DNA of 64,000 nt from Escherichia coli (GTDB lineage: Bacteria; Pseudomonadota; Gammaproteobacteria; Enterobacterales; Enterobacteriaceae): assembly GCF_965641715.1 (NCBI RefSeq), contig NZ_OZ282453.1; one strand, written 5' to 3'. Positions 1 to 31,369 of the stretch are shown here, one piece after another. Position 1 is the first letter of the stretch. Each line of letters begins with the position of its first letter. The position numbers were made by a program, and so were the translations under genes. The notes beneath the pieces are model-generated. The model had not been told where the DNA came from. It made no database searches and saw nothing but the letters and a program-made list of their open reading frames with translations.

Positions 1-2
1 CT

Positions 3-1547
<1,545 letters not shown>

Positions 1548-1554
1548 TAGGCCA

Positions 1555-1705
1555 GCACCGATGCCTGATGCGACGCTTGACGCGTCTTATCAGGCCTACG
1601 TATTTCCTGCAATTTATTGAATTTGCACAAATTTGTAGGCTGGATAAGGCGTTCACGCCGCATCCGGCATCTGGGCTCGATTGCCTGACGCGTCTGTTAT
1701 TTCCC
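1555..1705. repeat. REP/BIME cluster (about three palindromic units) in the convergent dtpD-phr junction
   Basis: Imperfect GC-rich palindromes such as gcctgatgcgacgc...gcgtcttatcaggcctac and ggataaggcgttcacgccgcatccggca, typical of E. coli REP elements. Confidence 0.7.
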
Positions 1706-3115
1706 CTTCCGCGCCGCCTCATACGCTGCCAACGTTTGTACTCTCGCCTCTTTGTGCTCGACTATCGGTTGCGGATAATCCAGCTTCACACCTGCTTTCT
1801 GCGCCCACTTCCACGGCTCATGCACCGATTTCCCCGGTACATTGCGTAGTTCCGGTAGCCACTGGCGGATAAACTCGCCTTCGCGGTCAAATTTCTCGCC
1901 CTGGGTTGTCGGGTTGAAAATACGAAAATACGGCGCTGCATCAGTACCCGTAGAAGCCGCCCACTGCCAGCCACCGTTATTAGCTGCCAAATCACCATCA
2001 ATCAGCTGCGACATGAAATATCGCTCGCCTTCGCGCCAGTCGATCAATAAATCTTTCACCAGAAAACTGGCTGTAATCATCCGTAGCCGGTTATGCATCC
2101 AGCCAGTGCTATTAAGCTGACGCATGGCAGCATCGACAATCGGGTATCCCGTTTTGCCTTCCTGCCAGGCCTGTAAATGTGCGGGATTGCTCTGCCACTG
2201 CACACGATCCGTCCAGGCAATAAACGGACAATGTTTACACAACGAGGGGTGATACGTTATCAGGTGACGGTAAAACTCGCGCCAGATCAGCTCACTAAGC
2301 CAGACACTACCGGCCCCACCGTCCAGCGCCTGCGGCTGTTCCGCCAACAAGCGATGCAAACACTGGCGAGGCGATAACCCGCCCGTTGCCAGGCTGGCGG
2401 ACAAACGACTGGTGCCTTCCACTGCCGGAAAATCTCGTTGTTGCTCATATTCTCCGGCACCGTTCTGGCAAAACTGGCGTAATTGCGCAATCGCCGCTTT
2501 TTCTTCCACCGGGAAATGCGCAGTATCGAAAGACTGACGAGGATAATTCAGCGTAATGGATGGCGCGGGCTTTATCGATCCGCTACTACGAACTTTTGGT
2601 GCAGCGACGCACTCCGGCATCCCTTCCCGCAGCCGTTTCAGCCAGGCATTCTTAAAAGGCGTAAAGACTTTGTACATCTCATGATTGCCGGTCATCACCG
2701 CGCCAGGCGGCAGGATCACGCTGTCATCAAATCCTTCACACACCACGTTACGCAGCGTTCTCTCAACCTGCACATCCCGCGCCCGCTCATTCACCTCATA
2801 CTGATAGTTATAAAAAAGATGAGTAACGCTGTTTTCCGCGCACACCTGTTTAACTATTTCGACGCTGGCGGCAAAGTCATCCACTTCACGGAACAATAAA
2901 GGAATGCCTTTTTCCGCCAGCGCGATTTGTAGCCCGTTCAGTTGAGCATTGATAAGTTCAGCCTGACGCGGCGACATATTATGCGCCGCCCACTGGCGTG
3001 GTGTAGCGATATACAACGCCAGCACGCGTGCAGACGAATTGCGGCAGGCGGCAGCCAGCGCGAGATTATCATGCAGACGTAAATCCTGGCGAAACCAGAC
3101 CAGATGGGTAGTCAT
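1697..3115 (-). CDS. phr: deoxyribodipyrimidine photolyase (472 aa)
   Basis: ORF begins MTTHLVWFRQDLRLHDN and contains the FAD-binding C-terminal photolyase motifs; its start overlaps the ybgA stop by 4 nt. Confidence 0.95.
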   Translation of the reverse strand: MTTHLVWFRQDLRLHDNLALAAACRNSSARVLALYIATPRQWAAHNMSPRQAELINAQLNGLQIALAEKGIPLLFREVDDFAASVEIVKQVCAENSVTHLFYNYQYEVNERARDVQVERTLRNVVCEGFDDSVILPPGAVMTGNHEMYKVFTPFKNAWLKRLREGMPECVAAPKVRSSGSIKPAPSITLNYPRQSFDTAHFPVEEKAAIAQLRQFCQNGAGEYEQQRDFPAVEGTSRLSASLATGGLSPRQCLHRLLAEQPQALDGGAGSVWLSELIWREFYRHLITYHPSLCKHCPFIAWTDRVQWQSNPAHLQAWQEGKTGYPIVDAAMRQLNSTGWMHNRLRMITASFLVKDLLIDWREGERYFMSQLIDGDLAANNGGWQWAASTGTDAAPYFRIFNPTTQGEKFDREGEFIRQWLPELRNVPGKSVHEPWKWAQKAGVKLDYPQPIVEHKEARVQTLAAYEAARKGK

Positions 3116-3621
3116 AAAACTCCTGAATGGCGCAAGTTAATCACACGCGGCCAAAGTTCGAAATAACGCTGCCCTGAAAGCCAGGCGTCAGGATAAAGCG
3201 CCATATAGTGTTTGATACGCATCAGCGGCGCAAGAAGCGGTTGCTCGCCACGGCGATAACTGTCGATAAGCGCCGCCAGCTGCTGGCGTTCTGTGGCATC
3301 AATATGCGGGCGAAAATACCCCTGAACGTGCATCAAAACGTTGGTGTGATCGCGCGGGTTGGCGGGATGAGAAAGCAAAACAATTACGCGTTGGCGGTAC
3401 TGGCTGTAAAAATCATCCAGATTTTGCCACTGGTGAATATCAGCCACGAACGGGCCAAGTTTGCGGTATTCCGGCTGGGAATGAGCCAGAAAGACGAGTT
3501 TATAGCGGCTGTGATAATCGAGAAGCGCCCCGCGCGTTAAGCCATGTTCTTTCAGTCGATGTAACTCATGAAGGGCGAAGATACGGATTAGGGTGCTGTC
3601 ATCAAATCGTTGCTGATTCAT
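3112..3621 (-). CDS. ybgA: DUF1722 protein, cotranscribed with phr (169 aa from internal Met; track ORF extends to 3711)
   Basis: Start chosen at MNQQRFDDSTL to match the recognised YbgA length; 4-nt overlap with the phr start. Confidence 0.8.
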   Translation of the reverse strand: MNQQRFDDSTLIRIFALHELHRLKEHGLTRGALLDYHSRYKLVFLAHSQPEYRKLGPFVADIHQWQNLDDFYSQYRQRVIVLLSHPANPRDHTNVLMHVQGYFRPHIDATERQQLAALIDSYRRGEQPLLAPLMRIKHYMALYPDAWLSGQRYFELWPRVINLRHSGVL

Positions 3622-3721
3622 TACTGCTCCTGAACGGTTTACAGGAGTAAGTGTAGACGGCGAAAAGAAAAAACCGCCAGCGTTTCCACTAGCGGTTTTC
3701 AATGTATTCAAAACTCAGCAA

Positions 3722-3928
3722 TCAGTAAAAATCACCGGTTGCCTTTTCGGCCTGATCCATCCAAACCGGTTTATCGCTGGTTTTCGACCAGACGCGATGC
3801 AGGTAGCTGTAAAAGCGGGCGCGGTCTTTCCAGAAAAGCATGAAAGGCAGCGCCAGAACGCCCGCTGCAACCGCATAAGTACGGCGTAAAAAGATAAGCC
3901 ATGCAGGATATTCTCTGTAGAGTTCCAT
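3722..3928 (-). CDS. ybfA: small DUF2517 membrane-associated protein (68 aa)
   Basis: 68-aa [19 protein letters not shown]... recognised as YbfA, divergent from kdpF. Confidence 0.8.
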
Positions 3929-4134
3929 ACTTTTCTCCCCCTTTTGTATCTACCCGGTGAATGGCACCGGAAAATGAATTTGTTTATCTGATGAAAATAG
4001 TACCGCCTTTTGTGTAATTTCACTACTCATCCGACCACTTATTTTTGCTTATTGATGGTTTATTTACATTCACCCTGTAATTAAGTTACACAAAAGTTAA
4101 ATTAATACTAAACATTAGTTAAATCATGGCTTTT

Positions 4135-8081: not shown

Positions 8082-8654
8082 ATGAGTGGATTACGTCCGG
8101 CATTATCGACATTTATCTTTCTGTTATTGATTACTGGCGGCGTTTACCCGCTGCTGACCACCGCGCTGGGGCAATGGTGGTTTCCCTGGCAGGCCAACGG
8201 TTCGTTGATCCGTGAAGGTGATACGGTGCGCGGTTCGGCATTAATCGGGCAGAATTTTACCGACAACGGCTATTTTCAGGGTCGCCCGTCGGCAACGGCA
8301 GAAATGCCCTATAATCCACAGGCTTCTGGCGGGAGCAATCTGGCAGTCAGTAACCCCGAGCTGGATAAACAGATAGCCGCACGCGTTGCCGCATTACGGG
8401 CCGCTAACCCGGATGCCAGCACGAGCGTTCCGGTTGAACTGGTGACGGCATCGGCAAGCGGGCTGGACAATAACATCACCCTACAAGCGGCGGCCTGGCA
8501 GATCCCACGCGTAGCGAAAGCGCGTAATCTCAGCGTTGAACAGCTCACGCAACTGATCGCAAAATACAGCCAACAACCACTGGTGAAATATATCGGCCAG
8601 CCGGTCGTCAACATTGTCGAACTCAATCTGGCGCTGGATAAACTTGATGAATAA
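8082..8654 (+). CDS. kdpC: K+-transporting ATPase subunit C (190 aa)
   Basis: Internal Met [16 protein letters not shown] matches the KdpC N-terminus. Confidence 0.9.
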
Positions 8655-11331
8655 CGAACCCTTACGTCCCGACCCCGATCGTCTGCTGGAACAAACTGCC
8701 GCGCCGCATCGGGGGAAGCTGAAAGTTTTCTTCGGTGCCTGCGCAGGCGTCGGGAAGACCTGGGCGATGCTGGCAGAAGCCCAGCGACTGCGGGCGCAAG
8801 GGCTGGATATTGTGGTTGGCGTGGTAGAAACCCACGGGCGGAAAGATACCGCCGCCATGCTGGAAGGGCTGGCTGTTCTGCCGCCAAAACGCCTGGCGTA
8901 CCGTGGGCGGCACATCAGCGAGTTTGATCTCGATGCCGCCCTCGCCCGCCGTCCGGCGCTGATCTTAATGGACGAACTGGCGCACAGTAATGCGCCAGGT
9001 TCTCGTCATCCTAAACGCTGGCAGGATATCGAAGAACTGCTGGAAGCTGGCATTGATGTTTTCACAACCGTCAACGTTCAGCATCTGGAAAGTCTGAATG
9101 ATGTGGTCAGCGGCGTCACCGGAATTCAGGTACGGGAAACCGTGCCCGATCCTTTTTTCGATGCCGCCGACGACGTGGTGCTGGTGGACTTGCCCCCGGA
9201 CGATCTGCGCCAGCGGCTGAAAGAAGGCAAAGTCTATATTGCCGGGCAGGCGGAGCGCGCCATTGAACATTTTTTCCGCAAAGGCAATCTGATCGCCCTG
9301 CGCGAACTGGCACTGCGCCGTACTGCCGATCGCGTTGATGAGCAAATGCGCGCCTGGCGGGGGCATCCTGGCGAAGAGAAAGTGTGGCACACGCGCGACG
9401 CGATCCTTTTATGCATCGGCCATAACACCGGCAGCGAAAAACTGGTCCGCGCGGCGGCGCGGCTGGCGTCACGGCTGGGGAGCGTCTGGCACGCGGTGTA
9501 TGTTGAAACCCCTGCCCTGCATCGCTTACCGGAGAAAAAACGTCGGGCAATTCTCAGCGCCTTACGTCTGGCGCAGGAGCTGGGCGCGGAGACGGCAACA
9601 CTTTCTGATCCAGCGGAAGAGAAAGCGGTAGTGCGTTATGCCCGTGAACATAATCTCGGCAAGATTATTCTCGGTCGCCCAGCCTCGCGCCGCTGGTGGC
9701 GTCGGGAAACGTTTGCTGACCGACTGGCGCGCATCGCCCCCGATCTCGATCAGGTGCTGGTCGCGCTTGATGAACCACCCGCCCGCACGATTAACAACGC
9801 GCCGGATAGCCGCTCTTTTAAAGACAAGTGGCGGGTACAGATTCAGGGATGCGTGGTTGCCGCCGCGTTATGCGCCGTTATCACCTTAATTGCCATGCAG
9901 TGGCTGATGGCGTTTGATGCCGCCAACCTGGTGATGCTGTATCTACTTGGCGTGGTGGTGGTGGCGCTATTTTATGGACGCTGGCCTTCGGTGGTTGCTA
10001 CCGTCATTAATGTGGTGAGTTTCGATCTCTTTTTTATCGCCCCACGCGGCACGCTCGCCGTCTCTGATGTGCAATATCTGCTGACCTTCGCGGTGATGTT
10101 AACCGTCGGGCTGGTGATCGGGAACCTTACTGCTGGCGTGCGTTATCAGGCGCGGGTAGCCCGTTACCGCGAACAACGCACACGGCACTTATATGAAATG
10201 TCGAAAGCTCTGGCTGTGGGCCGCAGTCCGCAGGACATCGCCGCCACCAGCGAACAATTTATTGCCTCCACGTTTCATGCCCGCAGTCAGGTGTTGTTGC
10301 CCGATGACAACGGTAAATTGCAGCCGTTAACACATCCGCAAGGAATGACGCCGTGGGACGATGCCATCGCGCAGTGGAGTTTTGATAAAGGCCTGCCTGC
10401 GGGTGCGGGCACCGACACGTTACCCGGCGTGCCGTACCAGATTTTGCCGTTAAAAAGCGGTGAGAAAACCTACGGGCTGGTGGTGGTGGAACCGGGGAAT
10501 CTGCGTCAGTTGATGATCCCGGAACAGCAGCGCCTGCTGGAGACGTTTACGCTGTTAGTCGCCAATGCGCTTGAGCGGCTGACGCTGACCGCCAGCGAAG
10601 AACAGGCGCGGATGGCAAGCGAACGTGAACAGATCCGCAACGCCCTGCTGGCGGCGCTTTCGCATGATTTACGCACTCCGCTTACGGTGCTGTTTGGTCA
10701 GGCAGAAATCTTAACGCTCGATCTGGCAAGCGAAGGATCACCCCACGCCCGCCAGGCCAGCGAGATTCGTCAGCATGTGCTGAACACTACCCGACTGGTG
10801 AATAATCTACTGGATATGGCGCGAATTCAGTCCGGCGGCTTTAATTTGAAGAAAGAGTGGTTAACGCTGGAAGAAGTAGTCGGCAGCGCGCTGCAAATGC
10901 TGGAACCGGGTTTATCGTCGCCCATCAATCTTTCTCTGCCAGAACCGCTGACCTTAATCCACGTTGACGGGCCACTCTTTGAACGGGTGCTGATTAATCT
11001 GCTGGAGAACGCGGTGAAATATGCGGGTGCGCAGGCCGAAATTGGTATCGATGCCCACGTTGAGGGCGAAAATCTACAACTGGATGTCTGGGATAACGGC
11101 CCCGGTCTTCCGCCAGGCCAGGAGCAGACGATATTTGATAAGTTTGCTCGCGGGAATAAAGAGTCGGCAGTACCGGGGGTAGGGCTTGGACTGGCAATTT
11201 GTCGGGCGATAGTGGATGTACACGGGGGCACTATTACCGCGTTCAACCGACCGGAAGGTGGTGCCTGTTTTCGTGTTACACTTCCCCAGCAAACTGCCCC
11301 TGAACTTGAAGAATTTCATGAGGATATGTGA
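8647..11331 (+). CDS. kdpD: sensor histidine kinase KdpD (894 aa)
   Basis: Starts [14 protein letters not shown]; N-terminal KdpD domain with P-loop GACAGVGKT, four TM helices and a C-terminal HisKA/HATPase region; 8-nt overlap with kdpC. Confidence 0.93.
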
Positions 11332-12005
11332 CAAACGTTCTGATTGTTGAAGATGAACAGGCTATTCGTCGCTTTCTGCGCACGGCGCTGGAGGGCGACG
11401 GGATGCGCGTCTATGAGGCCGAAACGCTGCAACGCGGCTTGCTGGAAGCGGCTACCCGTAAGCCAGATTTGATTATTCTCGATCTCGGCCTGCCCGATGG
11501 TGATGGGATTGAGTTTATCCGCGACCTGCGCCAGTGGAGCGCGGTGCCGGTGATTGTGCTTTCCGCACGCAGCGAAGAGAGCGACAAAATCGCCGCGCTG
11601 GATGCCGGAGCGGATGATTATCTAAGTAAGCCGTTTGGCATTGGCGAATTGCAGGCCCGTCTGCGCGTCGCTTTACGCCGCCACTCCGCCACCGCCGCGC
11701 CCGATCCGCTGGTGAAATTTTCCGATGTTACCGTCGATTTAGCCGCCCGCGTGATTCACCGGGGTGAGGAAGAGGTGCATCTCACCCCGATTGAGTTTCG
11801 CCTGCTGGCAGTGCTGCTCAACAACGCCGGAAAAGTGCTCACCCAGCGCCAACTCCTTAACCAGGTGTGGGGGCCAAACGCGGTCGAACACAGTCATTAT
11901 TTGCGTATTTATATGGGGCATCTGCGACAAAAACTGGAGCAGGATCCCGCCCGCCCCCGCCATTTCATTACCGAAACCGGTATTGGGTATCGGTTTATGC
12001 TTTAG
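11328..12005 (+). CDS. kdpE: OmpR-family response regulator KdpE (225 aa)
   Basis: Receiver domain plus winged-helix output domain; 4-nt overlap with the kdpD stop. Confidence 0.95.
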   Translation: MTNVLIVEDEQAIRRFLRTALEGDGMRVYEAETLQRGLLEAATRKPDLIILDLGLPDGDGIEFIRDLRQWSAVPVIVLSARSEESDKIAALDAGADDYLSKPFGIGELQARLRVALRRHSATAAPDPLVKFSDVTVDLAARVIHRGEEEVHLTPIEFRLLAVLLNNAGKVLTQRQLLNQVWGPNAVEHSHYLRIYMGHLRQKLEQDPARPRHFITETGIGYRFML

Positions 12006-12296
12006 GGGTTGAAATGCCGGATGCGGCGTAAACGCCTTATCCAGCCTACTCATCGTCCCGTAGGCATGATAAGACGCGTCAGCGTCGCATCAGGCATGGC
12101 TCTGTGAATAACGTCGGCAAAAACTGGAAAAAGACCCCGCCCTCGCCATTTCATTACCGAAACCGGTATTGGGTATCGGTTTATGCTTTAGGGGCTGACT
12201 TGCCGGATGCGGCGTGAACGCCTTATCCAGCCTACTCATCGTCCCGTAGGCATGATAAGACGCGTCAGCGTCGCATCAGGCATTGGCACTCATGGC
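11928..12296. repeat. tandem imperfect direct repeat of about 170 bp (kdpE 3' end plus REP), two copies about 18 bp apart
   Basis: Copy A (about 11928-12099) spans the last about 78 bp of kdpE plus a REP; copy B (about 12118-12296) repeats it at roughly 90% identity with a 1-nt indel that shifts the frame of the kdpE-like part. Confidence 0.7.
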
Positions 12297-12304
12297 TAAA
12301 TATT

Positions 12305-12799
12305 TTAATGTGTATTTATCGCTTTCAACTCTTGCTGGCATTTTTCTGACTGGCAGCGTCGCAACTCAATAATCCCGACATGCATCATCGAGCCAATAAA
12401 GCCGCTTTCGCTGACATAATCCTCATTAACTATCGGTCGAGTGCCGGGCTTGCCCTGGCAAACCAGCATAAAAAATGAGGTGTAGCACTGCCAGCCGGGA
12501 TTTAAACCGGCTTTTTCTTGTGCTGACATATCGTGAAGATAAATAAGTTCTTTTTCGTTCCCGCCTGACAACTGCCAGCGGCGGGTATTATCAGGTAAGT
12601 TATCGCTACAACAATTTGTCTTACACCGGGAAGGCGCAATATTTACCGCAATGCTACCCTTTAACCCTCTGGTTTTATCTTTAGGGGTCAGTAACCAGTC
12701 GCCAGCTAATGATGATTGTTCAGGTTGGGCACATGCAGTCAGCAGTAGTGTGGCGGCAATGAATGTTACTCTTACGACCAGACTCCTTTTGGTCTTCAT
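12305..12799 (-). CDS. ybfP: lipoprotein YbfP (164 aa)
   Basis: Signal peptide with lipobox LLTAC; sequence recognised as YbfP. Confidence 0.85.
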   Translation of the reverse strand: MKTKRSLVVRVTFIAATLLLTACAQPEQSSLAGDWLLTPKDKTRGLKGSIAVNIAPSRCKTNCCSDNLPDNTRRWQLSGGNEKELIYLHDMSAQEKAGLNPGWQCYTSFFMLVCQGKPGTRPIVNEDYVSESGFIGSMMHVGIIELRRCQSEKCQQELKAINTH

Positions 12800-12850
12800 T
12801 TTGAATTCCCTTGAGCTATTCAGTTTGTTGGCAAAGTGCGCGTTGTTTTT

Positions 12851-12885
<35 letters not shown>

Positions 12886-12931
12886 AAATGATGCAAATTC
12901 AATATATTGCACCATCAGGCAGTCATACGTA

Positions 12932-12966
12932 AAAAAGGGCGATCTTGCGACCGCCCTTTTTTTATT
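12932..12966 (-). terminator. putative bidirectional intrinsic terminator downstream of pgm
   Basis: aaaaaagggcgatcttgcgaccgcccttttttt: GC stem flanked by an A-run and a T-run. Confidence 0.5.
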
Positions 12967-12974
12967 AAATGTGT

Positions 12975-14615
12975 TTACGCGTTTTTCAGAACTTCGCTAA
13001 CAATCTCAACCGCTTCTTTCTCAATCTGCTTGCGATGTTCTTCACCGAGGAAGCTTTCGCAGTAGATCTTATATGCGTCTTCCGTGCCTGACGGACGCGC
13101 GGCGAACCAGCCGTTGTCAGTCATCACTTTCAGACCGCCAATAGAAGCACCGTTGCCCGGAGCAGCTGTCAGGCGCGCGGTGATCGGGTCACCTGCCAGG
13201 GTGCTGGCGCTCACCATTTCCGGAGACAGCTTAGACAGCGCCGCTTTTTGTGCGGAAGTCGCAGCTGCCTGCAAACGGTTGTAGCTCGGCGCACCAAAGC
13301 GTTTTGCCAGTTCGTTGTAGTGTTCCTGCGGGTTCTTACCGGTGACAGCGGTGATTTCCGCCGCGAGCAGACACATGATGATGCCGTCTTTGTCGGTGGA
13401 CCACGGCGTGCCGTCGAAACGCAGGAAGGAAGCCCCTGCGCTCTCTTCGCCGCCAAAGCCGAAGCTGCCGTCGAACAGACCATCAACAAACCATTTGAAA
13501 CCTACCGGGACTTCTACCAGTTTACGGCCCAAGTCGTTGACCACACGGTCGATCATCGCAGATGAAACCAGCGTTTTACCGACGGCAACATCTTTGCCCC
13601 ACTGCGGACGATGCTGGAACAGGTAATTGATCGCCACCGCCAGGTAGTGGTTCGGATTCATCAAACCTGCCGGAGTGACGATACCGTGACGGTCATAATC
13701 CGGGTCGTTAGCAAACGCCAGATCGAACTTATCACGCAGTGCCAGCAGGCCTGCCATTGCACACTCAGAGGAGCAGTCCATACGGATCGCGCCGTCTTTA
13801 TCAAGGTGCATAAAGCGGAAGGTTTGATCGACCTGATCGTTAACGATAGTCAGGTTGAGGTTGTAATACTCGCCAATACGCTTCCAGTATTCGATACCGG
13901 AACCGCCCAGCGGATCAACGCCAAGCGTCAGGCCCGCTTTCTGAATCGCCGCCATATCAACGATATCGGCCAGCCCTTCCACGAACGGCTGCACCAGATC
14001 CTGCTCTTTCACATGACCGGATGCCATCGCTTCGTCGAGGGAGATACGCTTCACGCCTTTCAGGCCATCGGCCAGCAGTGCGTTGGCACGATCTTCCACC
14101 ACTTTAGTGACGTTGGTATCAGCCGGGCCACCATTTGGCGGATTGTACTTGATACCACCATCTTCCGGCGGGTTATGGGACGGTGTAATAACGATACCGT
14201 CTGCCAGCGGGCCACCTTTTTTATTGTGAACCAGGATGGCATTGGAAACGGCAGGCGTCGGGGTGAAGCCATTGTTTTCCTGCACAATAACATCTACGCC
14301 GTTCGCTGCCAGCACTTCCAGAACGGAAATAAATGCAGGTTCGGACAGGGCGTGAGTATCTTTACCCACATAGCAAGGGCCAGTGATGCCGTTTTTCGCA
14401 CGTTCTTCAGCAATTGCCTGAGCGATCGCCAGAATGTGCGGCTCGTTAAAGCTGTGGCGCGCTGCACTGCCACGGTGACCGGAAGTACCGAATTTCACCG
14501 CGTGCTCCGCATTCCCTGCTTCTGGTTTCAGTACATAATATTGCGCCGTCAGTTGGGCGACGTTAATCAAATCACTCTGTTGTGCAGGTTGGCCTGCACG
14601 ATTGTGGATTGCCAT
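12975..14615 (-). CDS. pgm: phosphoglucomutase (546 aa)
   Basis: Starts [12 protein letters not shown]; active-site region TPSHNP present; the track ORF has a 17-codon upstream extension. Confidence 0.95.
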
Positions 14616-14640
14616 TGCTTTGTCCTTTGTCTGCAACGTT

Positions 14641-15186
14641 TTAGATAGTTCCGCAAACCTTCTCAATCAATTCCGCCGGGAATTGCATCGACTGCATGAT
14701 GTGTTCGATCATGCTGCATTTACGGCCGGTGTTGGTGTTGGTGATCACCCAATACGGCGTGCCTGGCACATGTTTCGGCTTGGTCTGATTACCATTTTTC
14801 AGCAGCGTTTGTTCATCTGCCGCAAAGTAAACGCGTGTACGACCGTGCAACGATTCCGTTGCTTCGGCAAACGCCTGGGCGTCAAGAGAATATAGTGTAG
14901 ACAACAGCAGCATAAAGCGATTGACCGCTCGCTTTTGCTCTGCGTATTCATCCGAAAGCAGAAGTTCACGCATTGCGCGAACCTTGTCTTTAATCGTTTT
15001 GACCGGCTTCGCTTCGACGATAGCAGGTGACGCAACGCGAACCTCTTTCGTCACCGGAGCAGCAGGCTGTGATGCGGCGGAAAATTTCAACATACGCCGT
15101 AAAATGTCGGATGCGCTCTCGCCGATATGCTTAGTGTGGCTGGCAATATAGCTGTAGAGTTCATCATCAACTTCAATCGTTTTCAT
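14641..15186 (-). CDS. seqA: negative modulator of replication initiation SeqA (181 aa)
   Basis: Internal Met [18 protein letters not shown] matches the SeqA N-terminus; 25 bp upstream of pgm (seqA-pgm operon). Confidence 0.9.
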
Positions 15187-15370
15187 CTTAATCCAGTGCA
15201 GTGTCTTAGCTGAATACAAGTCGCCAGGAGTATATGAATAAATCCCGGCAGCGGATAGCGTCAAGCCTGGCTTGCAGAAAAACTCGGAATAAACCTTATT
15301 TGTTGCAGCCCTGTGGCACAATGGTCAACATAATACCCTAACCCGACAACGCGAAAAAAAGAACTTTGCC

Positions 15371-16135
15371 ATGAAATTGAATATCCGCGCGCAAACTGCA
15401 CAAAACCAGCACAATAATTCTCCCATCGTTCTTGTCCATGGTCTGTTTGGCAGCCTCGACAACCTTGGCGTACTGGCTCGCGATCTGGTAAACGATCACA
15501 ATATCATCCAGGTTGATATGCGTAACCACGGTCTTTCACCGAGAGATCCGGTAATGAATTACCCGACGATGGCGCAGGATCTTGTTGATACCCTGGATGC
15601 ACTGCAGATCGACAAAGCAACATTTATCGGTCACTCCATGGGCGGTAAAGCGGTAATGGCACTTACTGCACTGGCCCCCGATCGCATCGATAAACTGGTG
15701 GCGATCGATATCGCACCGGTCGACTATCACGTACGCCGTCATGATGAGATTTTCTCGGCTATCAACGCGGTCAGTGAATCGGACGCACAAACTCGCCAGC
15801 AAGCAGCAGCAATAATGCGCCAGCATCTTAATGAAGAAGGGGTGATTCAGTTTCTGTTGAAATCTTTTGTTGACGGGGAGTGGCGCTTTAACGTGCCGGT
15901 ATTGTGGGATCAGTATCCGCATATTGTGGGTTGGGAGAAAATCCCGGCATGGGATCACCCTGCCCTGTTTATCCCTGGTGGTAATTCTCCGTATGTTAGC
16001 GAGCAGTACCGTGATGATTTACTGGCACAATTTCCACAGGCACGGGCGCATGTGATTGCAGGCGCGGGTCACTGGGTCCATGCTGAAAAACCGGATGCGG
16101 TATTACGCGCTATCCGTCGCTATCTCAATGATTAA
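15371..16135 (+). CDS. ybfF: alpha/beta-hydrolase esterase YbfF (254 aa)
   Basis: GHSMGG nucleophile elbow; full-length ORF. Confidence 0.9.
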   Translation: MKLNIRAQTAQNQHNNSPIVLVHGLFGSLDNLGVLARDLVNDHNIIQVDMRNHGLSPRDPVMNYPTMAQDLVDTLDALQIDKATFIGHSMGGKAVMALTALAPDRIDKLVAIDIAPVDYHVRRHDEIFSAINAVSESDAQTRQQAAAIMRQHLNEEGVIQFLLKSFVDGEWRFNVPVLWDQYPHIVGWEKIPAWDHPALFIPGGNSPYVSEQYRDDLLAQFPQARAHVIAGAGHWVHAEKPDAVLRAIRRYLND

Positions 16136-16274
16136 CGCAACTGATTAAAAACCCAGCGTCCGCGTCGCTTTCCGCGCGTGGGCGTTGGCGTGACTCATCG
16201 CGCTGATGTATTATGGCGCGCTATCCATCCGGGCAGAGGCCTGGCTGATTGTTTCCCCCGAAGTCACCAAGATC

Positions 16275-16568
16275 ATGGCCAAAGAACAAACGGACCGTAC
16301 GACATTAGATCTGTTCGCGCACGAGCGTCGACCGGGACGACCGAAAACTAATCCGCTTTCGCGCGATGAACAGCTGCGTATTAATAAACGCAACCAACTA
16401 AAACGCGACAAAGTACGTGGCCTTAAGCGTGTCGAACTGAAGCTGAACGCGGAAGCTGTCGAGGCGCTGAACGAGCTGGCGGAATCGCGCAATATGAGCC
16501 GTAGCGAACTGATCGAAGAGATGTTAATGCAGCAACTGGCGGCGCTGCGTAGTCAGGGCATCGTTTAA
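16275..16568 (+). CDS. ybfE: small DNA-damage-inducible protein YbfE (97 aa from internal Met)
   Basis: Start at MAKEQTDRTT by recognised length; basic helical protein. Confidence 0.75.
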   Translation: MAKEQTDRTTLDLFAHERRPGRPKTNPLSRDEQLRINKRNQLKRDKVRGLKRVELKLNAEAVEALNELAESRNMSRSELIEEMLMQQLAALRSQGIV

Positions 16569-16706
16569 ATTTCCACTTTCATGTAGCACAGTGTGCAGTC
16601 CTGCTCGTTTGCTGATTCCGCAAGACTGCCTGTTCTGCTATGATTGCCTTTATCCGTGGGCAATTTCCCCCCCCATTTCAATAAGTTTCAAGAGGTTATT
16701 TCACTC

Positions 16707-17237
16707 ATGGCTATCACTGGCATCTTTTTCGGCAGCGACACCGGTAATACCGAAAATATCGCAAAAATGATTCAAAAACAGCTTGGTAAAGACGTTGCCG
16801 ATGTCCATGACATTGCAAAAAGCAGCAAAGAAGATCTGGAAGCTTATGACATTCTGCTGCTGGGCATCCCAACCTGGTATTACGGCGAAGCGCAGTGTGA
16901 CTGGGATGACTTCTTCCCGACTCTCGAAGAGATTGATTTCAATGGCAAACTGGTTGCGCTGTTTGGTTGTGGTGACCAGGAAGATTACGCCGAATATTTC
17001 TGCGACGCATTGGGCACCATCCGCGACATCATTGAACCGCGCGGTGCAACCATCGTTGGTCACTGGCCAACTGCGGGCTATCATTTCGAAGCATCAAAAG
17101 GTCTGGCAGATGACGACCACTTTGTCGGTCTGGCTATCGACGAAGACCGTCAGCCGGAACTGACCGCTGAACGTGTAGAAAAATGGGTTAAACAGATTTC
17201 TGAAGAGTTGCATCTCGACGAAATTCTCAATGCCTGA
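16707..17237 (+). CDS. fldA: flavodoxin 1 (176 aa)
   Basis: Starts [20 protein letters not shown], the flavodoxin FMN-binding loop. Confidence 0.95.
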
Positions 17238-17243
17238 TGTGAT

Positions 17244-17272
17244 GCGGCGTAGACTCATGTCTACGCCGTATT
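17244..17272 (+). terminator. hairpin downstream of fldA (partial terminator or attenuator)
   Basis: gcggcgtagactcatgtctacgccgta inverted repeat. Confidence 0.4.
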
Positions 17273-17442
17273 AATAGATAATGCCAATCAAAATAATTGC
17301 TACAAATTTGTAACTTTTGCTGTTGTACCTGTACAATGTCCCGGTGTTCAAGTGGCCTTGCCGTTGTAAATGTAAGCTGTGCCACGTTTTTATTAACAAT
17401 ATTTGCCAGGGACTTGTGGTTTTCATTTAGGCGTGGCAATTC

Positions 17443-17461
17443 TATAATGATACGCATTATC
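17443..17461. promoter_or_regulatory. Fur-box-like sequence at the uof start
   Basis: tataatgatacgcattatc matches 16 of 19 positions of the Fur consensus gataatgataatcattatc. Confidence 0.45.
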
Positions 17462-17533
17462 TCAAGAGCAAATTCTGTCACTTCTTCTAATGAAGTGAAC
17501 CGCTTAGTAACAGGACAGATTCCGCATGACTGA
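17447..17533 (+). CDS. uof: upstream-of-fur leader peptide (28 aa)
   Basis: ATG at 17447 gives MIRIISRANSVTSSNEVNRLVTGQIPHD; ends 8 nt inside the fur ORF (translational coupling). Confidence 0.7.
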   Translation: MIRIISRANSVTSSNEVNRLVTGQIPHD

Positions 17534-17972
17534 TAACAATACCGCCCTAAAGAAAGCTGGCCTGAAAGTAACGCTTCCACGTTTAAAAATCCTGGAAGTT
17601 CTTCAGGAGCCGGACAACCATCACGTCAGTGCGGAAGATTTATACAAACGTCTGATCGATATGGGTGAAGAAATTGGTCTGGCTACGGTATATCGCGTAC
17701 TGAACCAGTTTGACGACGCTGGTATCGTCACCCGCCACAATTTTGAAGGCGGTAAATCCGTATTTGAACTGACACAGCAACATCACCACGATCACCTGAT
17801 CTGCCTCGACTGCGGCAAGGTTATCGAATTTAGTGATGATTCCATCGAAGCGCGTCAGCGTGAAATTGCCGCAAAACATGGCATTCGCCTGACTAACCAC
17901 AGTCTCTATCTTTACGGTCACTGTGCCGAAGGCGATTGCCGCGAAGATGAGCACGCGCACGAAGGCAAATAA
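17526..17972 (+). CDS. fur: ferric uptake regulator Fur (148 aa)
   Basis: MTDNNTALKKAGLKVTLPRLKILEVL..., with HHHDH and CxxC metal-binding motifs. Confidence 0.97.
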   Translation: MTDNNTALKKAGLKVTLPRLKILEVLQEPDNHHVSAEDLYKRLIDMGEEIGLATVYRVLNQFDDAGIVTRHNFEGGKSVFELTQQHHHDHLICLDCGKVIEFSDDSIEARQREIAAKHGIRLTNHSLYLYGHCAEGDCREDEHAHEGK

Positions 17973-17985
17973 GCCAGTCTGAACG

Positions 17986-18016
17986 AGAAAAGCCAACCTG
18001 CGGGTTGGCTTTTTTA
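17986..18016. terminator. bidirectional intrinsic terminator between convergent fur and chiQ
   Basis: aaagccaacctgcgggttggctttttt: perfect 9-bp stem plus T-run. Confidence 0.7.
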
Positions 18017-18055
18017 TGCAAGGGAAATAAGAAAAGCGAGAGTTACAGCTCTCAC

Positions 18056-18382
18056 TTATTTGTTATTACTGCGAATTTCCTGCCAGACCTTATCACAATC
18101 GGCTTTCACCGCCTGATCATTTCCGGTTTGCGTTGCACGCAGACACTGCTGATAATCCAGTACGCGGACACTTTCCTGGTCGGCAAACTGCTGATGTTGT
18201 TTCTCTTTCTTCAGCACGTTTAACACGCTCTGGCAGGCTTCAATTTTTTCCGGCGAACCTTGCGCGGTGTTGATACAGGCGCTGTATGCCTCTTTCAGAC
18301 GACTGTCTTCCTGTGGCGCGGTTGATTGCGCACAAGCTACCAGCCCCGATGCCATCATGGCGATGAGAATCAGTTTTTTCAT
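18056..18382 (-). CDS. chiQ: lipoprotein ChiQ (108 aa)
   Basis: Signal peptide with lipobox LVAC; immediately downstream of chiP. Confidence 0.85.
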   Translation of the reverse strand: MKKLILIAMMASGLVACAQSTAPQEDSRLKEAYSACINTAQGSPEKIEACQSVLNVLKKEKQHQQFADQESVRVLDYQQCLRATQTGNDQAVKADCDKVWQEIRSNNK

Positions 18383-18431
18383 AGCAAATTCCTCAAACGT
18401 GCGGCAGGCACAAAACCTGCCGCGTCGGGCA

Positions 18432-19838
18432 TCAGAAGATGGTGAATGGTGCGATTACCATAAATTTCACGTCGCGCTCATCCTGGAAGATGTTACCGTA
18501 ACCGCCACCCCAGCTTGGGATGTCGGAGTGGTTGTCGTATTCGGTGAAGTGCAGTTTGAACATCGTGCCTTTGGCGCGACCGTCCTGAATGGTGTAGACC
18601 GCATCCAGGCTGTATGCAGACTCTTCAATAGTCCGGTTTTTGTCGTAGTACGCATCCGGATTGCTCTGCCAAGTCGCAGGTTTAGCATCCCATGCGTAAA
18701 CGTAGGAAGCGCCGATGGCGAAGCCTGGAAGATTCCAGTTTTTCAGGTCATACATCGCACCGAAGAAGACCGCTTTTTCGCCGTTGGCGTTGAAGTCAGA
18801 ACGGTTATCCCACCAGATATCCAGGCGGCCGTTGGAAGAAGCGTAGGTTGGAGTCATACGTTGCAGGAAGTATCCCTGCTGACCTTCAGCCTTAACCCAG
18901 GTGCCTTCGAGGCGCAAATCCACTACGTCAGCCGCCCGGTAACCAAAGGTCAACGCTTGCAGCCAGGCGGTGCCGTCATAAAGATCGTTGACGCTGCGAT
19001 CGTCAACTTTATCGCGCGTACCGTAGAACTGGTAGCTGGTGGTTAACGGGCTACCGGCGATATCAAATTTGTAGCTGGCTTTGGCAAAGTATTGATCGAT
19101 ATACCCTTCCGCCTGACCAAATGCCGCTTCCAGTACGAAGTTATTTTTGAAGTCGTATTTCGCACCAAGGGAGTGCAGATAATCAACTTTGGTGGTTTTA
19201 TCGTTCTGATAAAACTCATCCATTTCCAGATGCCACGGTGCTTTGTATTCGTTGGTCCACATGTAGGAGAAACTCAACGCACCAGCATCGCCGTAATCAA
19301 AATTCGCTCCGGCTTCCGCACCCTGATAAGTACCCGGCATAAAGCTCCAGTGAGGCGCTAACAGCGTCTGACCGGTTGGCTGAATATAACCTGCCCTCGC
19401 CCAAACCGGACCGTATTTAAATTTGGCCGCAGCTTTATACAGGCTTATACCGCTTTTGTCGCCGGACCAGTCTTCGTCATAGGCTTTATTACTTTTTGAA
19501 AACGCGATTTCGTTCGGGTGAGAGCTGTCGCCGTTTTCCGCCATTTCAATCGCCGTAAACGCAGCAATATCAAGGCCGAACATATCAGCAGCATAACCGG
19601 ACTGAAAATCGAGGTTGGCATTCCAGGTGGAGTGAGAAAGGTTGGTTTTGTATTTGTCGCCGTCGGTAACATCTTTACGGTCGCGTTCACGCTGCCAGTA
19701 ATATATACCGCCGGTTAAGGTTGAATCGTCGATGAATCCTTCGGCGCGAGCCTCCGGCATTGCCATAAAGCCCGACATTGCTGTAACACCGGCGATAGCC
19801 AGCGCCAGCGTACTACGTTTGCCACTAAACGTACGCAT
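18432..19838 (-). CDS. chiP: chitooligosaccharide outer-membrane porin ChiP (468 aa)
   Basis: Signal peptide, OprD-like beta-barrel, C-terminal aromatic residue (ends ...APFTIF). Confidence 0.93.
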
Positions 19839-20219
19839 GGGTTAATCCTCTTTGACGTATAAATTGCTGCACCAAAGGTGAACAGCGAAAAAAAATAAAA
19901 ATTAAAAAAGTAGCGTTGAGAAAAGTCTCGCTGACTACAGGAACAGACTATTTTTCGCGACGCGAATTATCAATCTCTTTCTGTAACCAGAATGTAAGAA
20001 CATGAGCAACCGCACATATTTTGATGATTTTTGTTACAAGGCTTAAGTTTGCGGTTGAAAGGCTTGCAGAAGAATAAAAGCGTGAATTTCCAGCAAGATG
20101 AAAGCGGTTACATTTTATTTAATTATGTTTTGTTATTTTAAATTTATTTTATGGATAAATTGCGAAGCGGAATTAATTCGCGAAGAAAAGCAGAAAAAAC
20201 GCCGCTGAACGCGGCGTTT

Positions 20220-20410
20220 TGGATTGTTTGCATATTTCTTGCCGGATGCGGCGTGAACGCCTTATCCGGCCTACAAAAGCACGCAAACTCAATATATTGC
20301 AGAGATCATGTAGGCCTGATAAGCGTAGCGCATCAGGCAATTTAGCGTTTGAAACTGTTTGTCTGTTCCTTGCCGGATGCGACGTAAACGCCCCATCCGG
20401 CATAGCGAAA
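20220..20410. repeat. BIME/REP cluster (at least three REP units) between glnS and the chiP promoter
   Basis: gccggatgcggcgtgaacgccttatccggcctac, gtaggcctgataagcgtagcgcatcaggca and gccggatgcgacgtaaacgccccatccggca. Confidence 0.75.
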
Positions 20411-20417
20411 CTTAAAA

Positions 20418-22082
20418 TTACTCGCCAACTTTCGCCCAGGTATCACGCAGCCCAACGGTGCGGTTAAATACCGGTTTTTCGGCAGTGGAATGGCGGCTAT
20501 CGAGGCAGAAGTAACCTTCACGCTCAAACTGGAATGCTTTACCCGCAACCGCATCTTTCAGCGACGGTTCAGCAAAGCCCTGTTTGATCACCAGCGATTC
20601 CGGGTTAATCACCGACAGGAAATCATCCGCAGCACCAGGGTTCGGCACACTGAACAGACGGTCATACAAACGGATTTCAACCGGCAGCGCATGTGCCGCG
20701 CTCACCCAGTGAATAACACCTTTGACTTTACGACCATCTGCCGGATCTTTACTTAAGGTATCGGCGTCATAAGTACAGAAGATGGTGGTGATATTACCTT
20801 CGGCATCTTTCTCGACGCGTTCTGCCTTAATCACATAAGCATTACGCAGACGCACTTCTTTACCGAGCACCAGACGTTTGTACTGCTTGTTAGCTTCTTC
20901 GCGGAAATCGGCGCGATCGATCCAAATCTCACCGCTAAACGGCACCTGACGGCTCCCCATTTCCGGTTTGTTCGGATGGTTCGGCATGGTGACCATTTCG
21001 CCTTCGCCCTGATAGTTTTCGATAACCAGTTTCACCGGATCGATAACCGCCATTGCGCGCGGCGCATTTTCGTTGAGATCTTCACGGATGCAGGATTCCA
21101 GCGACGCCATCTCAATGGTGTTGTCCTGCTTGGTCACGCCGATGCGTTTGCAGAACTCACGAATAGAAGCCGCAGTGTAACCACGACGACGCAGACCGGA
21201 AATGGTCGGCATTCGCGGGTCATCCCAGCCTTCAACGTGCTTGTCGGTCACCAGCAGGTTCAGCTTACGCTTGGACATCACAGTGTATTCCAGATTCAGG
21301 CGCGAGAATTCGTACTGGCGCGGGTGAACAGGAATGGTGATGTTGTCCAGCACCCAGTCGTACAGGCGACGGTTGTCCTGGAACTCAAGCGTACACAGAG
21401 AGTGCGTAATACCTTCCAGCGCATCGCTGATGCAATGGGTGAAGTCGTACATCGGGTAGATGCACCACTTGTTGCCAGTCTGGTGGTGTTCAGCAAATTT
21501 AATGCGGTACAGCACCGGATCGCGCATTACGATAAATGGCGACGCCATGTCGATTTTCGCACGCAGGCAGGCTTTACCTTCTTCAAAACCGCCGGTACGC
21601 ATTTTCTCGAACAGCGCCAGGTTCTCTTCAACGCTACGGTCGCGGTACGGGCTGTTTTTACCAGGCTGCGTCAGGGTGCCGCGGTATTCGCGGATCTGTT
21701 CCGGCGTCAGTTCATCAACGTACGCCAGGCCTTTATTGATCAGTTCGATCGCATAGGCGTGGAGCTGATCAAAATAATCGGAGGAGTAACGGACGTTACC
21801 AGACCAGTGAAAACCTAACCACTCAACGTCGTTTTTGATCGAATCGACATACTCGATATCTTCTTTTACCGGGTTAGTGTCGTCGAAACGCAGGTTGCAC
21901 TGGCCTTTATAGTCCTGGGCGATCCCGAAGTTCAGGCAGATAGATTTCGCATGGCCAATATGCAGATAGCCATTCGGCTCCGGCGGGAAACGGGTGTGTA
22001 CTGTGGTGTGCTTACCACTGGCCAGATCTTCATCGATGATCTGACGAATAAAGTTAGTCGGGCGGGCTTCTGCCTCACTCAT
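20418..22082 (-). CDS. glnS: glutaminyl-tRNA synthetase (554 aa)
   Basis: [17 protein letters not shown]...; class I HIGH (HIGH) and KMSKS-like (VMSKR) motifs. Confidence 0.97.
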
Positions 22083-22301
22083 CGTGGATTCCTCAAAGCG
22101 TAAACAACGTATAACGGCGTATGATCTTATAAGCGGGACAGGCTGACAACTGTTAGTTAGCGAAAAAGTGGTTTTGCGTAAGATATTGGGGCGTTTTCTG
22201 CGCTACAGCCAGCAGATCCTCGCGCTGGAGACGTAAGGCCAAACGTCGCCAGCCTGACGCGTTTATTAAATTTCCGGATGAGCTGGCCGCAGAGTCGTAG
22301 A

Positions 22302-23063
22302 TTAATCCGCTATGATTAAACGCGTCGACAAGGACGCCAGCGTTTTGCGCGTCTGCCCATCAAGCTGATTATCCGTAATAATCTCTGTCAGTTCATTAAG
22401 ATGCGCGATATTAAACAGCGACCATGAACCGTATTTTGAGCTGTCAGCCAGGAGAATTTTGCGCGAAGCATGCGCGATAAGATCGCGTTTTAGTGCGGCT
22501 TTCTCTTCCGTGGGTGCTGTAATACCCTTTTCAAGATCCCAGCTGTTACAGCTTAAAAATGCCACGTCCGGCCAGGTATTTTGCAGCATTTTACGACCAT
22601 GTTCGCCAATGCAGGACTGGCTGGAGTCGTCGATACGTCCGCCGATAATCGTCACTTCAATCTGCTTGAATTCAGCCAAAAAAAGCGCGATATGCAGGTC
22701 GCTGGTGATCACGCGAAGCGGTAAATGGGTAATCTGCCGCGCAAGTTCAATCATTGTCGTACCGGCATCAAGGACGACGGAATCCCCCGCTTTGACCATT
22801 GACGCCGCTGCGCTGGCGATGGCATGTTTTTCCGCCAGGCTGCGCTGCATTTTCTCATGGGTAGTCGGTTGGGTAGGAATAAACCGGTTGAGGGTCACAC
22901 CGCCGTGTGTACGGCTGATAACACCCTGCTCATCGAGTTTTATCAGGTCTCGACGAATCGTGGCCGGCGACGCATTGGTTACCGCCACCAGCTCATCAAC
23001 GGTGACCAGATTATGGCTTTTCAGGTAATCCATGATCTGCTCTAACCGGTTATATCCCTTCAT
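22302..23063 (-). CDS. DeoR/GlpR-family transcriptional regulator (253 aa)
   Basis: N-terminal HTH ([30 protein letters not shown]) and C-terminal DeoR-type sugar-phosphate-binding domain; last gene of a three-gene leftward operon. Confidence 0.8.
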
Positions 23064-23064
23064 T

Positions 23065-24051
23065 TTATTCTCGCGAAATCTGCATTGCTAACTGGATGGA
23101 AACTGCCATGCTCTCAGACTTGGCTTTTCCTGTCCAGGCAATATCAAATGCGGTGCCGTGGTCGGCAGAAGTACGAATAAATGGCAACCCGGCGGTGATA
23201 TTCACCCCATCATAAAATCCAAGCAGTTTTAAAGGGATATGCCCCTGATCGTGGTACATAGCCACCACCATATCGAATAGCCCTTCATGGCACTGCATGA
23301 ACACGGTATCTGGCGGGCACGGGCCAGTAACATCAATATCTTCGGCCTGCATTGCTTCAATCGCAGGTGCGATAATCTCGATTTCCTCAGTGCCGAATAA
23401 ACCGTGTTCCCCTGCATGTGGATTTACACCCGCCACGGCAATACGCGGACGCTCAATACCGACACGTTTCAGGAAGTGGTTCGCAACTCGAATAACCGTT
23501 TTGACCCTTTCACCGTTCAATGTATCCAGGAATTTACGCAGTGAGATGTGAGTCGAAATATGGATAACCTTGAGCTTATCGGTATAGAGCACCATCGCGT
23601 ACTCTTTGCTGCCGGTAAGATGGGCCAGCAATTCCGTATGGCCAGGATAGTTATGCCCGCCAAGATGCAGCGCTTCTTTATTCAACGGCGCAGTGGCTAT
23701 GGCTTTCACCTCGCCTGATAAGGCCAGGGCCGTTGCACGTTTGATACAGCGATACGCTAAATCGCCTGCCGCAGCCTGTACCACTCCGGGTGTCAGCGCA
23801 TCGGGGTTAGCCAGCGGCTCATCCATCACGTTAATCACGCCGGGAGCAAAGTGGGCGTCGCACACCTTTTGAATGACGCGTAACTCTGTCTGCGGCGTGA
23901 TATTCATCGCCATAATACGTCGTAACGTGCGCACACAGCCCACCACCACCACCGGGGCACCAGCAAGCCCGGCTTCGCTCAGGGATTTAATAATGATCTC
24001 CGGGCCAATACCCGCCGGATCGCCCATCGTTACCGCAATAATATTATTCAC
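23065..24051 (-). CDS. PdxA-family NAD-dependent dehydrogenase, PdxA2-like (328 aa)
   Basis: Whole-length resemblance to 4-hydroxythreonine-4-phosphate dehydrogenase ([23 protein letters not shown]); starts 8 nt inside the upstream kinase gene. Confidence 0.75.
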
Positions 24052-25282: not shown

Positions 25283-25448
25283 CACTCCAGGTTGTTTTAT
25301 GATGACAATGATTATATTCAATCACGATTGATTAAATGTGAGCAAGTTCAAGTTATTAATCACTCGAATAAATTATAAAATTAGGCCATGTTACGTAGAC
25401 AACGGTATTTTGAATGATTGATTTCAATCACGAGAAGAGAGGTTATTT
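25283..25448. promoter_or_regulatory. divergent promoter/operator region of the island
   Basis: AT-rich 166-bp spacer between divergent operons containing TCAATCAC-GATTGATT (25318-25333) and its permuted inverted-repeat form GATTGATT-TCAATCAC (25416-25432). Confidence 0.5.
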
Positions 25449-26606: not shown

Positions 26607-26609
26607 ATC

Positions 26610-27497: not shown

Positions 27498-27556
27498 ATT
27501 AACTCTATTATCCAGCCCGCTATAACGTATAGATAAAGAGAATAAAGGATTACCCC

Positions 27557-28315: not shown

Positions 28316-28350
28316 TAAATCTATTACCGACTTTAAGATGGAGTCTAACT

Positions 28351-29987: not shown

Positions 29988-30000
29988 AAGGAGAGAAAAA

Positions 30001-31281: not shown

Positions 31282-31290
31282 TCTCAGACA

Positions 31291-31326
31291 AAAAAAGCGG
31301 CAGAGAAGATCCCTGCCGCTTTTTAT
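31291..31326. terminator. bidirectional intrinsic terminator at the island/nagE junction
   Basis: aaaaaagcggcagagaagatccctgccgcttttt: 7-bp GC stem flanked by an A-run and a T-run. Confidence 0.7.
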
Positions 31327-31329
31327 TGT

Positions 31330-31362
31330 TGAATGCGACGCTGCCGTGTCGCATCAGGCATG
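31330..31362. repeat. REP-like palindromic fragment
   Basis: gaatgcgacgctgccgtgtcgcatcaggcatg. Confidence 0.45.
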
Positions 31363-31369
31363 AAGCAGA

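Follow-up and report, generated by a model that had tools for sequence, protein, structure and literature searches.

The stretch of DNA analyzed here, 64 kb from Escherichia coli (hereafter the window), carries an intact kdpE gene whose 3' end, together with the REP sequences that follow it, is present twice in tandem. The earlier note had described such a duplication from the letters alone and had placed ybfP and pgm directly after it; a repeat search and a gapped alignment bear out the first point, and the ORF list and tblastn the second. The features of the locus, and the evidence by which each was placed, are as follows.

8647 to 11331, forward strand: kdpD (tblastn, nucleotide identity, SNP map)
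11328 to 12005, forward strand: kdpE, intact, 225 aa, stop codon TAG at 12003-12005 (ORF list, tblastn)
11853 to 11917, no strand: recombination breakpoint interval within kdpE (SNP maps, segment identities)
11925 to 12100, forward strand: tandem copy 1, the last 81 nt of kdpE (11925-12005) plus a REP doublet (repeat search, alignment)
12014 to 12097, no strand: REP doublet of copy 1, with inverted REP arms at about 12014-12049 and 12060-12097 (fold)
12100 to 12114, forward strand: join segment between the copies, 15 nt, ctctgtgaataacgt (pattern search, alignment)
12115 to 12191, forward strand: kdpE-tail relic of copy 2, 77 nt, with a relic TAG at 12189-12191 (repeat search, alignment)
12201 to 12282, no strand: REP doublet of copy 2 (fold, in-window matches, allele comparison)
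12305 to 12799, reverse strand: ybfP, a lipoprotein gene (ORF list, sequence comparisons)
12850 to 12965, no strand: a REP, the spacer 'aaattcaatatattgcaccatc', and the pgm terminator (junction comparison, REP match)
12975 to 14615, reverse strand: pgm (ORF list, tblastn)

The tandem unit at 11925-12100 recurs at 12115-12286 with a period of 186-190 nt; the earlier note had put the unit at about 170 bp, which is too short, and its kdpE part at about 78 bp, which measures 81 nt. The repeat search of the window resolves the unit into two direct repeats, one of 148 nt (11950-12097 versus 12136-12283; spacing 186; 97% identity) and one of 33 nt (11925-11957 versus 12115-12147; spacing 190; 79% identity). 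When copy 1 is aligned with copy 2, allowing gaps, the whole unit gives 163 matches, 9 mismatches, and 5 gap positions, or about 92%. The kdpE tail accounts for 72 matches, 5 mismatches, and 4 gap positions, and the REP part for 91 matches, 4 mismatches, and 1 gap position. Divergence is uneven along the unit, the first ~33 nt of copy 2 being far more diverged than the remainder. Tandem Repeats Finder, run with default scoring, did not report the unit.

The arrangement is that of a tandem segmental duplication: the two copies have the same orientation and are adjacent, separated by a 15-nt join and by no unrelated gene. The join at 12100-12114 had no second occurrence in the 64-kb window by pattern search. 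The tandem's join sequence is GGCATGGCTCTGTGAATAACGTCGGCAAAAACTGG, and the 15-nt segment may represent a decayed kdpE 'ggcatctg' plus a 10-nt insertion. The kdpE tail of copy 2 lacks a start codon and carries a 4-nt frameshifting deletion, in keeping with its earlier description as a frameshifted pseudo-C-terminus of KdpE. Because the same junction is found at 99% identity in two independent complete genomes, it is neither a chance occurrence nor an assembly artefact.

The non-coding part of the unit has the properties of REP/BIME sequences, namely imperfect palindromes of ~35-40 nt, arranged as an inverted pair, intergenic, and repeated around the genome; judged by the consensus sequences, the doublet may be a Y unit plus an inverted Z2 unit. 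In copy 1 the doublet folds as one long hairpin (DNA dG -26.9 kcal/mol, z -5.0), and the hairpin of copy 2 is of similar strength (dG -26.3 kcal/mol, z -4.5). Matches to the REP-derived Rfam family naRNA4 score 33-42 bits, under the gathering score of 59.5 bits. Within the 64 kb, the sole match of the kdpE tail, and likewise of the full REP doublet, is the other copy, and the other REPs of the window (at 1561-1670, 12850, 20240, 40781, and 54205) match the doublet only as single units of 35-40 nt. The two doublets are 98.8% identical over 83 nt, and both read ccagcctactcatcg where the single-copy alleles of EC1 and L095 read ccgacctacacatcg. Thus, they are best read as sister copies that arose by duplication in situ. 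A promoter and terminator scan gave matches at chance level. We found no sign of a function: the duplication is most likely functionless and neutral, and would at most give the kdp operon one more REP hairpin at its downstream end.

The neighboring ybfP allele is also rare. Only A30 and 2018-05-2CC have one that is 100% identical to it, and no other allele exceeds 95.6% identity; ybfP is present in 2,112 of the 5,426 complete E. coli genomes surveyed, and the window allele (at least 99% identity) in only 2. YbfP matches no Pfam family, and a protein search found its homologues confined to Escherichia. Within E. coli, ybfP alleles are deeply diverged (87-96% nucleotide identity, versus 97-99% for the flanking genes), and the YbfP proteins of the window and L095 are 69% identical in amino acid sequence.

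Two other parts of the window also vary among strains. Between glnS and nagE, at 22167-31347, lies an accessory island of ~9.2 kb that ~1,046 complete E. coli genomes have and that K-12 and 2018-05-2CC lack; its genes encode a DeoR regulator, a PdxA-like dehydrogenase, a four-carbon-acid sugar kinase (SBD_N/NBD_C), an Fe-alcohol dehydrogenase, a DHDPS-family lyase, a TerC protein, a BNR-repeat (sialidase-like) protein, and a CitMHS/SLC13 transporter. Over 13000-33000, the best genomes spanning the whole query are ~96.4-96.8% identical overall. This low value is due to the island and does not mean that the window comes from outside E. coli, whose genomes match the core genes at 98-99.7%. At 1-4023, a dtpD-like POT transporter gene, a photolyase gene, ybgA (DUF1722), and ybfA form an uninterrupted block, which lacks any Rhs element between ybgA and ybfA. 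ST131 is similar; in K-12-like strains, O157:H7, and 2018-05-2CC, ybfA has an Rhs element as its neighbor.

Structural forms of the kdpE-pgm interval

In MG1655 the gene order is pgm, ybfP, ybfG (a pseudogene), ybfI (a 150-nt pseudogene), potE, speF, speFL, and kdpE. The statement in the earlier note that K-12 has speF-potE between kdpE and ybfP was thus correct, as was its view that these genes are missing here: the distance from the kdpE stop to the ybfP stop is 299 bp in the window versus 5,149 bp in MG1655, and tblastn gave no match to speF or potE in the first 20 kb of the window. The pseudogene ybfI is a truncated kdpE 3' end, labeled by PGAP as a winged-helix fragment. We found no integrative island, as nothing lies between the copies in the window and speFL, speF, and potE, none of them an integrase gene, are all that K-12 has from kdpE to ybfI. 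An imperfect direct repeat of ~43 nt (L001, 8960-9002 and 10474-10516; ~80% identical) brackets the ybfI-ybfG-ybfP cassette of K-12. The repeat has the form 'c(t/a)gtttgttg(g/a)caaa...tgccg' and runs into a REP or REP remnant, and no other match of this kind occurs in the 19.7-kb locus; it may be a trace of how the cassette was inserted.

In a survey of 5,426 complete E. coli genomes, the interval takes at least six structural forms, given here with their content, example genomes, and frequency.

Form S: speFL-speF-potE only; O157:H7, ST131, NCTC9064, and E. albertii; ~3,200 genomes, an estimate obtained as speF-positive genomes minus form K
Form K: speFL-speF-potE, ybfI, ybfG, and ybfP; K-12; 1,826 genomes
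Form Y1: REP doublet and ybfP; EC1 and 042; ~243 genomes
Form Y2: the tandem of the window, then ybfP; A30 (baboon) and 2018-05-2CC (human, Viet Nam); 2 genomes
Form D: REPs only; JNE151685; ~108 genomes
kdpE-ybfG form: ybfG and ybfP; CUWW10 and GF4-3; 2 genomes

The tandem junction was found in only A30 and 2018-05-2CC, at 99% identity, and the single-copy form Y1 is more than 100 times commoner. A third match to the kdpE-ybfG form, in KL53, is interrupted by IS1, and IS-mediated deletions of the interval occur in a few more genomes. Across the survey, speF is found in 5,042 genomes if a coverage of at least 80% is required and in 5,127 if any coverage counts, so that ~300-380 (6-7%) lack it. 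We found no literature on this kdpE-pgm locus.

Several strains show further variation in the interval. In 2017-01-4CC (L008, 2895-5049), an IS1-mediated deletion has removed the 3' part of kdpD together with the whole of kdpE, speF-potE, and ybfI, so that an intact DUF2625 (ybfG) gene now borders IS1. GPEC464 (L090, 2264-2722) is a K-type variant with an IS200C transposase between ybfP and pgm, in which ybfI and ybfG are both frameshifted and lie nearer each other than in K-12. The speF gene itself (L001, 5405-7603; also L005, L006, and L007) is unusually divergent, with 91-95% nucleotide identity among K-12, O157:H7, and ST131. Identity is 98-99% for the adjacent potE and 96-99% for kdpD and pgm; in 3,095 of the 5,426 genomes, speF is only 90-95% identical to that of K-12.

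Outside E. coli, the locus was mapped by tblastn in species-representative genomes, and the statements that follow hold for the best 80 of 521 loci, a set without Salmonella, E. fergusonii, E. marmotae, and E. ruysiae. Within this set, kdpE directly adjoins pgm in Pantoea, Serratia, Dickeya, Buttiauxella, and several Citrobacter, as well as in E. whittamii and in L011, a divergent 'E. coli' representative. At this site speF-potE is found in E. albertii and has a patchy occurrence in Citrobacter, Enterobacter, Kluyvera, and Lelliottia, and ybfP occurs in E. coli only. Since kdpE-pgm adjacency is widespread among these outgroups, the empty state is old in the order. The REP, spacer, and terminator block that lies at 12850-12965 in the window is found directly 3' of kdpE in genomes lacking both speF and ybfP.

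Empty allele or deletion scar

The absence of speF-potE had been given two readings in the earlier note, as an empty ancestral site or as a deletion for which the duplicated unit is the recombination scar. In the latter case, a K-12-like ancestor would have lost ~5 kb, and the repeat copies would be its leftover edges. Two observations are in line with such a history: K-12-type genomes do carry two kdpE tails, in kdpE and in ybfI, around speFL-speF-potE, and copy 2 of A30 and 2018-05-2CC has two base states in common with ybfI. However, recombination between direct repeats leaves one copy, not two, and CUWW10 (L098, 1233-2684) shows what a real scar looks like. In this genome, a single K-12-type kdpE runs into the ybfI flank and then into ybfG, without speF-potE, the crossover having fallen within the last ~19 identical nt of kdpE and ybfI. 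The direct repeats formed by K-12-type kdpE and ybfI therefore do mediate loss of the speF-potE operon, and the product is a single kdpE-ybfG fusion. In the window, by contrast, two copies remain and ybfG, the right flank of the K type, is absent; a tblastn search of the part examined, the first 20 kb, recovered no remnant of speF or potE.

The sequences at the ends of the copies also argue against a scar. Both kdpE and copy 2 in the window end in TAG followed by a REP, like E. whittamii, L011, and E. coli in which kdpE adjoins pgm, whereas kdpE of speF-bearing alleles ends in TGA followed by AT-rich DNA upstream of speFL, and ybfI of the K type likewise has TGA and non-REP DNA. The two base states that copy 2 has in common with ybfI occur in E. 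whittamii and L095 as well, so they are ancestral rather than jointly derived. On these grounds, and because the boundaries and indels of the two kdpE fragments differ, we rejected orthology of copy 2 and ybfI. Finally, the 243 speF-less single-copy genomes, and the ~108 that have only kdpE, REPs, and pgm, mean that emptiness of the site needs no duplication. The scar is already largely refuted by these observations, and we consider it very improbable. Of the two readings first offered, the empty site is the better supported, by the kdpE that ends in TAG and then REP: the window allele would be an alternative or empty one that never held speF-potE or lost it long ago, and the duplication appears to be an independent, old, local event.

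As to the origin of the kdpE-ybfG form, CUWW10 and H130 were each considered as a possible ancestor and rejected, CUWW10 being a recent kdpE/ybfI recombinant and H130 the product of an IS1-mediated deletion. In GF4-3 (L099), kdpE abuts ybfG with no speF-potE between.

Mosaic history and origin of the duplication

Comparison of the three tandem carriers, the window, A30, and 2018-05-2CC, reveals a recombination mosaic. To the left of the breakpoint interval, the window is O157-like: its kdpD is 99.7% identical in nucleotide sequence to that of O157:H7, and up to ~11917 there are 7 differences from O157:H7 in 3.27 kb. To the right, there are 8 differences from O157:H7 in 88 nt, and here the window is identical to 2018-05-2CC. 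Against 2018-05-2CC, the window has 45 differing sites up to 11852 and then only 12152 until 12947; against A30, differences extend up to 12011, with 6 of them in copy 1, and are then again limited to 12152 until 12947. The three carriers accordingly have one differing site across ~12012-12946 and three different kdpDE alleles upstream. As they have the REP doublet of copy 1, copy 2 as a whole, and ybfP in common but differ in kdpDE, the tandem predates the exchanges and the duplication is old. The three kdpDE alleles further imply that the coding part of copy 1 was overwritten by homologous recombination. Both the duplication itself and this later overwriting are directly visible in the comparison. 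At 12152, the window has C, like its own copy 1, and A30 and 2018-05-2CC have T, the older state; a point mutation would account for the difference, and so would a short gene conversion with copy 1 as donor and copy 2 as recipient.

About 8 of the ~11 substitutions that distinguish copy 2 from copy 1 are states present in functional kdpE tails (E. whittamii, L011, L095, EC1), among them GAC, CCT, TTT (in A30 and 2018-05-2CC), ggggCtga, and gtGaacg, and only 3, along with the 4-nt deletion, are peculiar to copy 2. Because most of its states are those of older alleles, copy 2 preserves an older allele and is not a decayed replica of the present copy 1.

Based upon these data, we think it reasonably probable that the tandem is an old local head-to-tail duplication, not a scar and probably functionless, of which copy 1 was later overwritten. 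It would have arisen in an allele of the hypervariable kdpE-pgm interval that had ybfP but no speF-potE, from a unit of 186-190 bp comprising the last 81 nt (possibly ~95 nt) of kdpE and the following REP doublet. The 3' flank of the second REP would have been joined to a point inside kdpE, probably where 4 nt of microhomology (GGCA or ATGG) allowed illegitimate recombination or template switching, with the strong REP hairpin as a plausible trigger of slippage or template switching. The alignment allows a start of copy 2 at the kdpE sequence 'atggggcatctg', which would give this microhomology with the REP flank 'caggcatggca' and then small indels. The microhomology also calls for the loss of 1-2 nt and the insertion of 10 nt at the join, and with these extra indels the original junction is not readable with confidence. 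Copy 1 would have stayed the working end of kdpE, to be overwritten later through homologous recombination with other kdpE alleles, and copy 2 would have become a non-coding relic that kept older allele states and gained its 4-nt deletion. Simple duplication followed by uniform decay does not sit well with identities of 79% over the first 33 nt versus 97% over the next 148 nt; the uneven divergence needs a gene-conversion tract or an error-prone join, and both would fit. No intermediate, for instance a tandem whose copies are undiverged, was found among the 5,426 genomes.

The older states of copy 2, set against the common E. coli states of copy 1, could also reflect one-ended illegitimate recombination, in which incoming DNA with kdpD-kdpE and a REP doublet paired through homology on the kdp side and joined illegitimately within the resident kdpE, leaving the resident kdpE tail and REP doublet behind as copy 2. 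By analogy, ybfI would be what remained after the entry of kdpE-speF-potE DNA into a genome in which kdpE, ybfG, and ybfP were neighbors. Both relics do directly adjoin the ybfP cassette, on its kdp side, in an interval that is demonstrably a recombination mosaic, and the unusual divergence of speF in E. coli (91-95%, versus 98-99% for potE) would be in keeping with such an entry. Yet we rate this origin lower, as possible but rather unlikely, because of the sister-copy signature in the REP doublets, whose 98.8% identity and bases missing from other single-copy alleles are better explained by local duplication. Moreover, ordinary homologous overwriting of copy 1 is directly seen and accounts for the allele states without a special event, and of the two kdpE-ybfG genomes that might stand for the ancestor, at least one (CUWW10) is a recent deletion derivative. 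A general form of the idea, that copy 2 and ybfI are both footprints of one-ended illegitimate joins by which foreign DNA came in from the kdp side, the K-12 type having formed through entry of kdpE-speFL-speF-potE, strikes us as doubtful. If it were true, kdpE-speFL-speF-potE would have entered a speF-less ancestor with kdpE, ybfG, and ybfP adjacent, truncating the resident kdpE, and the interval would record homology-facilitated illegitimate recombination and repeated gain and loss of the acid-inducible ornithine decarboxylase system in E. coli. Hairpin-forming inverted REP pairs are the kind of structure on which REP-associated transposases act, and the unit holds such a pair, so that the doublet might have moved as a REPIN and dragged its kdpE flank along. 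But a mobilized doublet would be expected alone and in dispersed copies, whereas here almost half of the unit (81 nt) consists of kdpE coding sequence that is unique, the second copy lies right beside the first with its orientation unchanged, and the other REPs of the window carry no kdpE sequence; we regard this origin as scarcely credible.

An old local duplication of this kind is of little importance in itself, being probably a neutral relic beside an intact kdpE, and its value is that of a marker. The tandem tags a rare, deeply diverged haplotype (2 of 5,426 complete genomes) of an interval whose form decides the presence of SpeF-PotE, an inducible ornithine decarboxylase/antiporter pair. 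The locus also offers a worked example of how an empty or alternative allele can be told from a deletion scar, by means of stop codon and flank, single-copy relatives, and a genuine scar, and it shows homologous recombination overwriting one duplicate while the other keeps older states. The process is ordinary genome plasticity in a REP-rich, recombination-prone interval.

Comparison with known systems

REP clusters vary in copy number and sit at the join points of rearrangements. Like the palindromes of REP/BIME clusters, the two GC-rich sequences of ~35 nt that make up the unit's non-coding half are inverted relative to each other, intergenic, and able to form a hairpin. Unlike plain clusters, the unit includes 81 nt of coding sequence, and its join runs from a REP flank to the interior of a gene rather than from REP to REP.

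The closest counterpart of copy 2 is ybfI (b4636 in MG1655), which is also a truncated kdpE 3' end within the kdpE-pgm interval, on the kdp side of ybfP. ybfI is found in 1,826 of the 5,426 complete genomes and comprises 135-150 nt of kdpE, versus 81 nt in copy 2. It is parted from kdpE by speFL-speF-potE, whereas only a 15-nt join, after a REP doublet, precedes copy 2, and it ends in TGA and is followed by ybfG, whereas copy 2 ends in TAG and is followed by its REP doublet. ybfI has substitutions of its own (agcaactat, gtaattat) and in some strains a 1-nt deletion, none of which recurs in copy 2, where the deletion is of 4 nt. With boundaries, flank, stop codon, and indels all different, ybfI and copy 2 are independent events.

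The single-copy speF-less alleles, such as those of 042, EC1, and E. whittamii, resemble the window in that kdpE ends in TAG followed by a REP and speF-potE is absent; ybfP may be present or absent. They have one kdpE tail and one REP doublet where the window has two, and in ybfP and the spacer their identity to the window does not exceed 92.7%.
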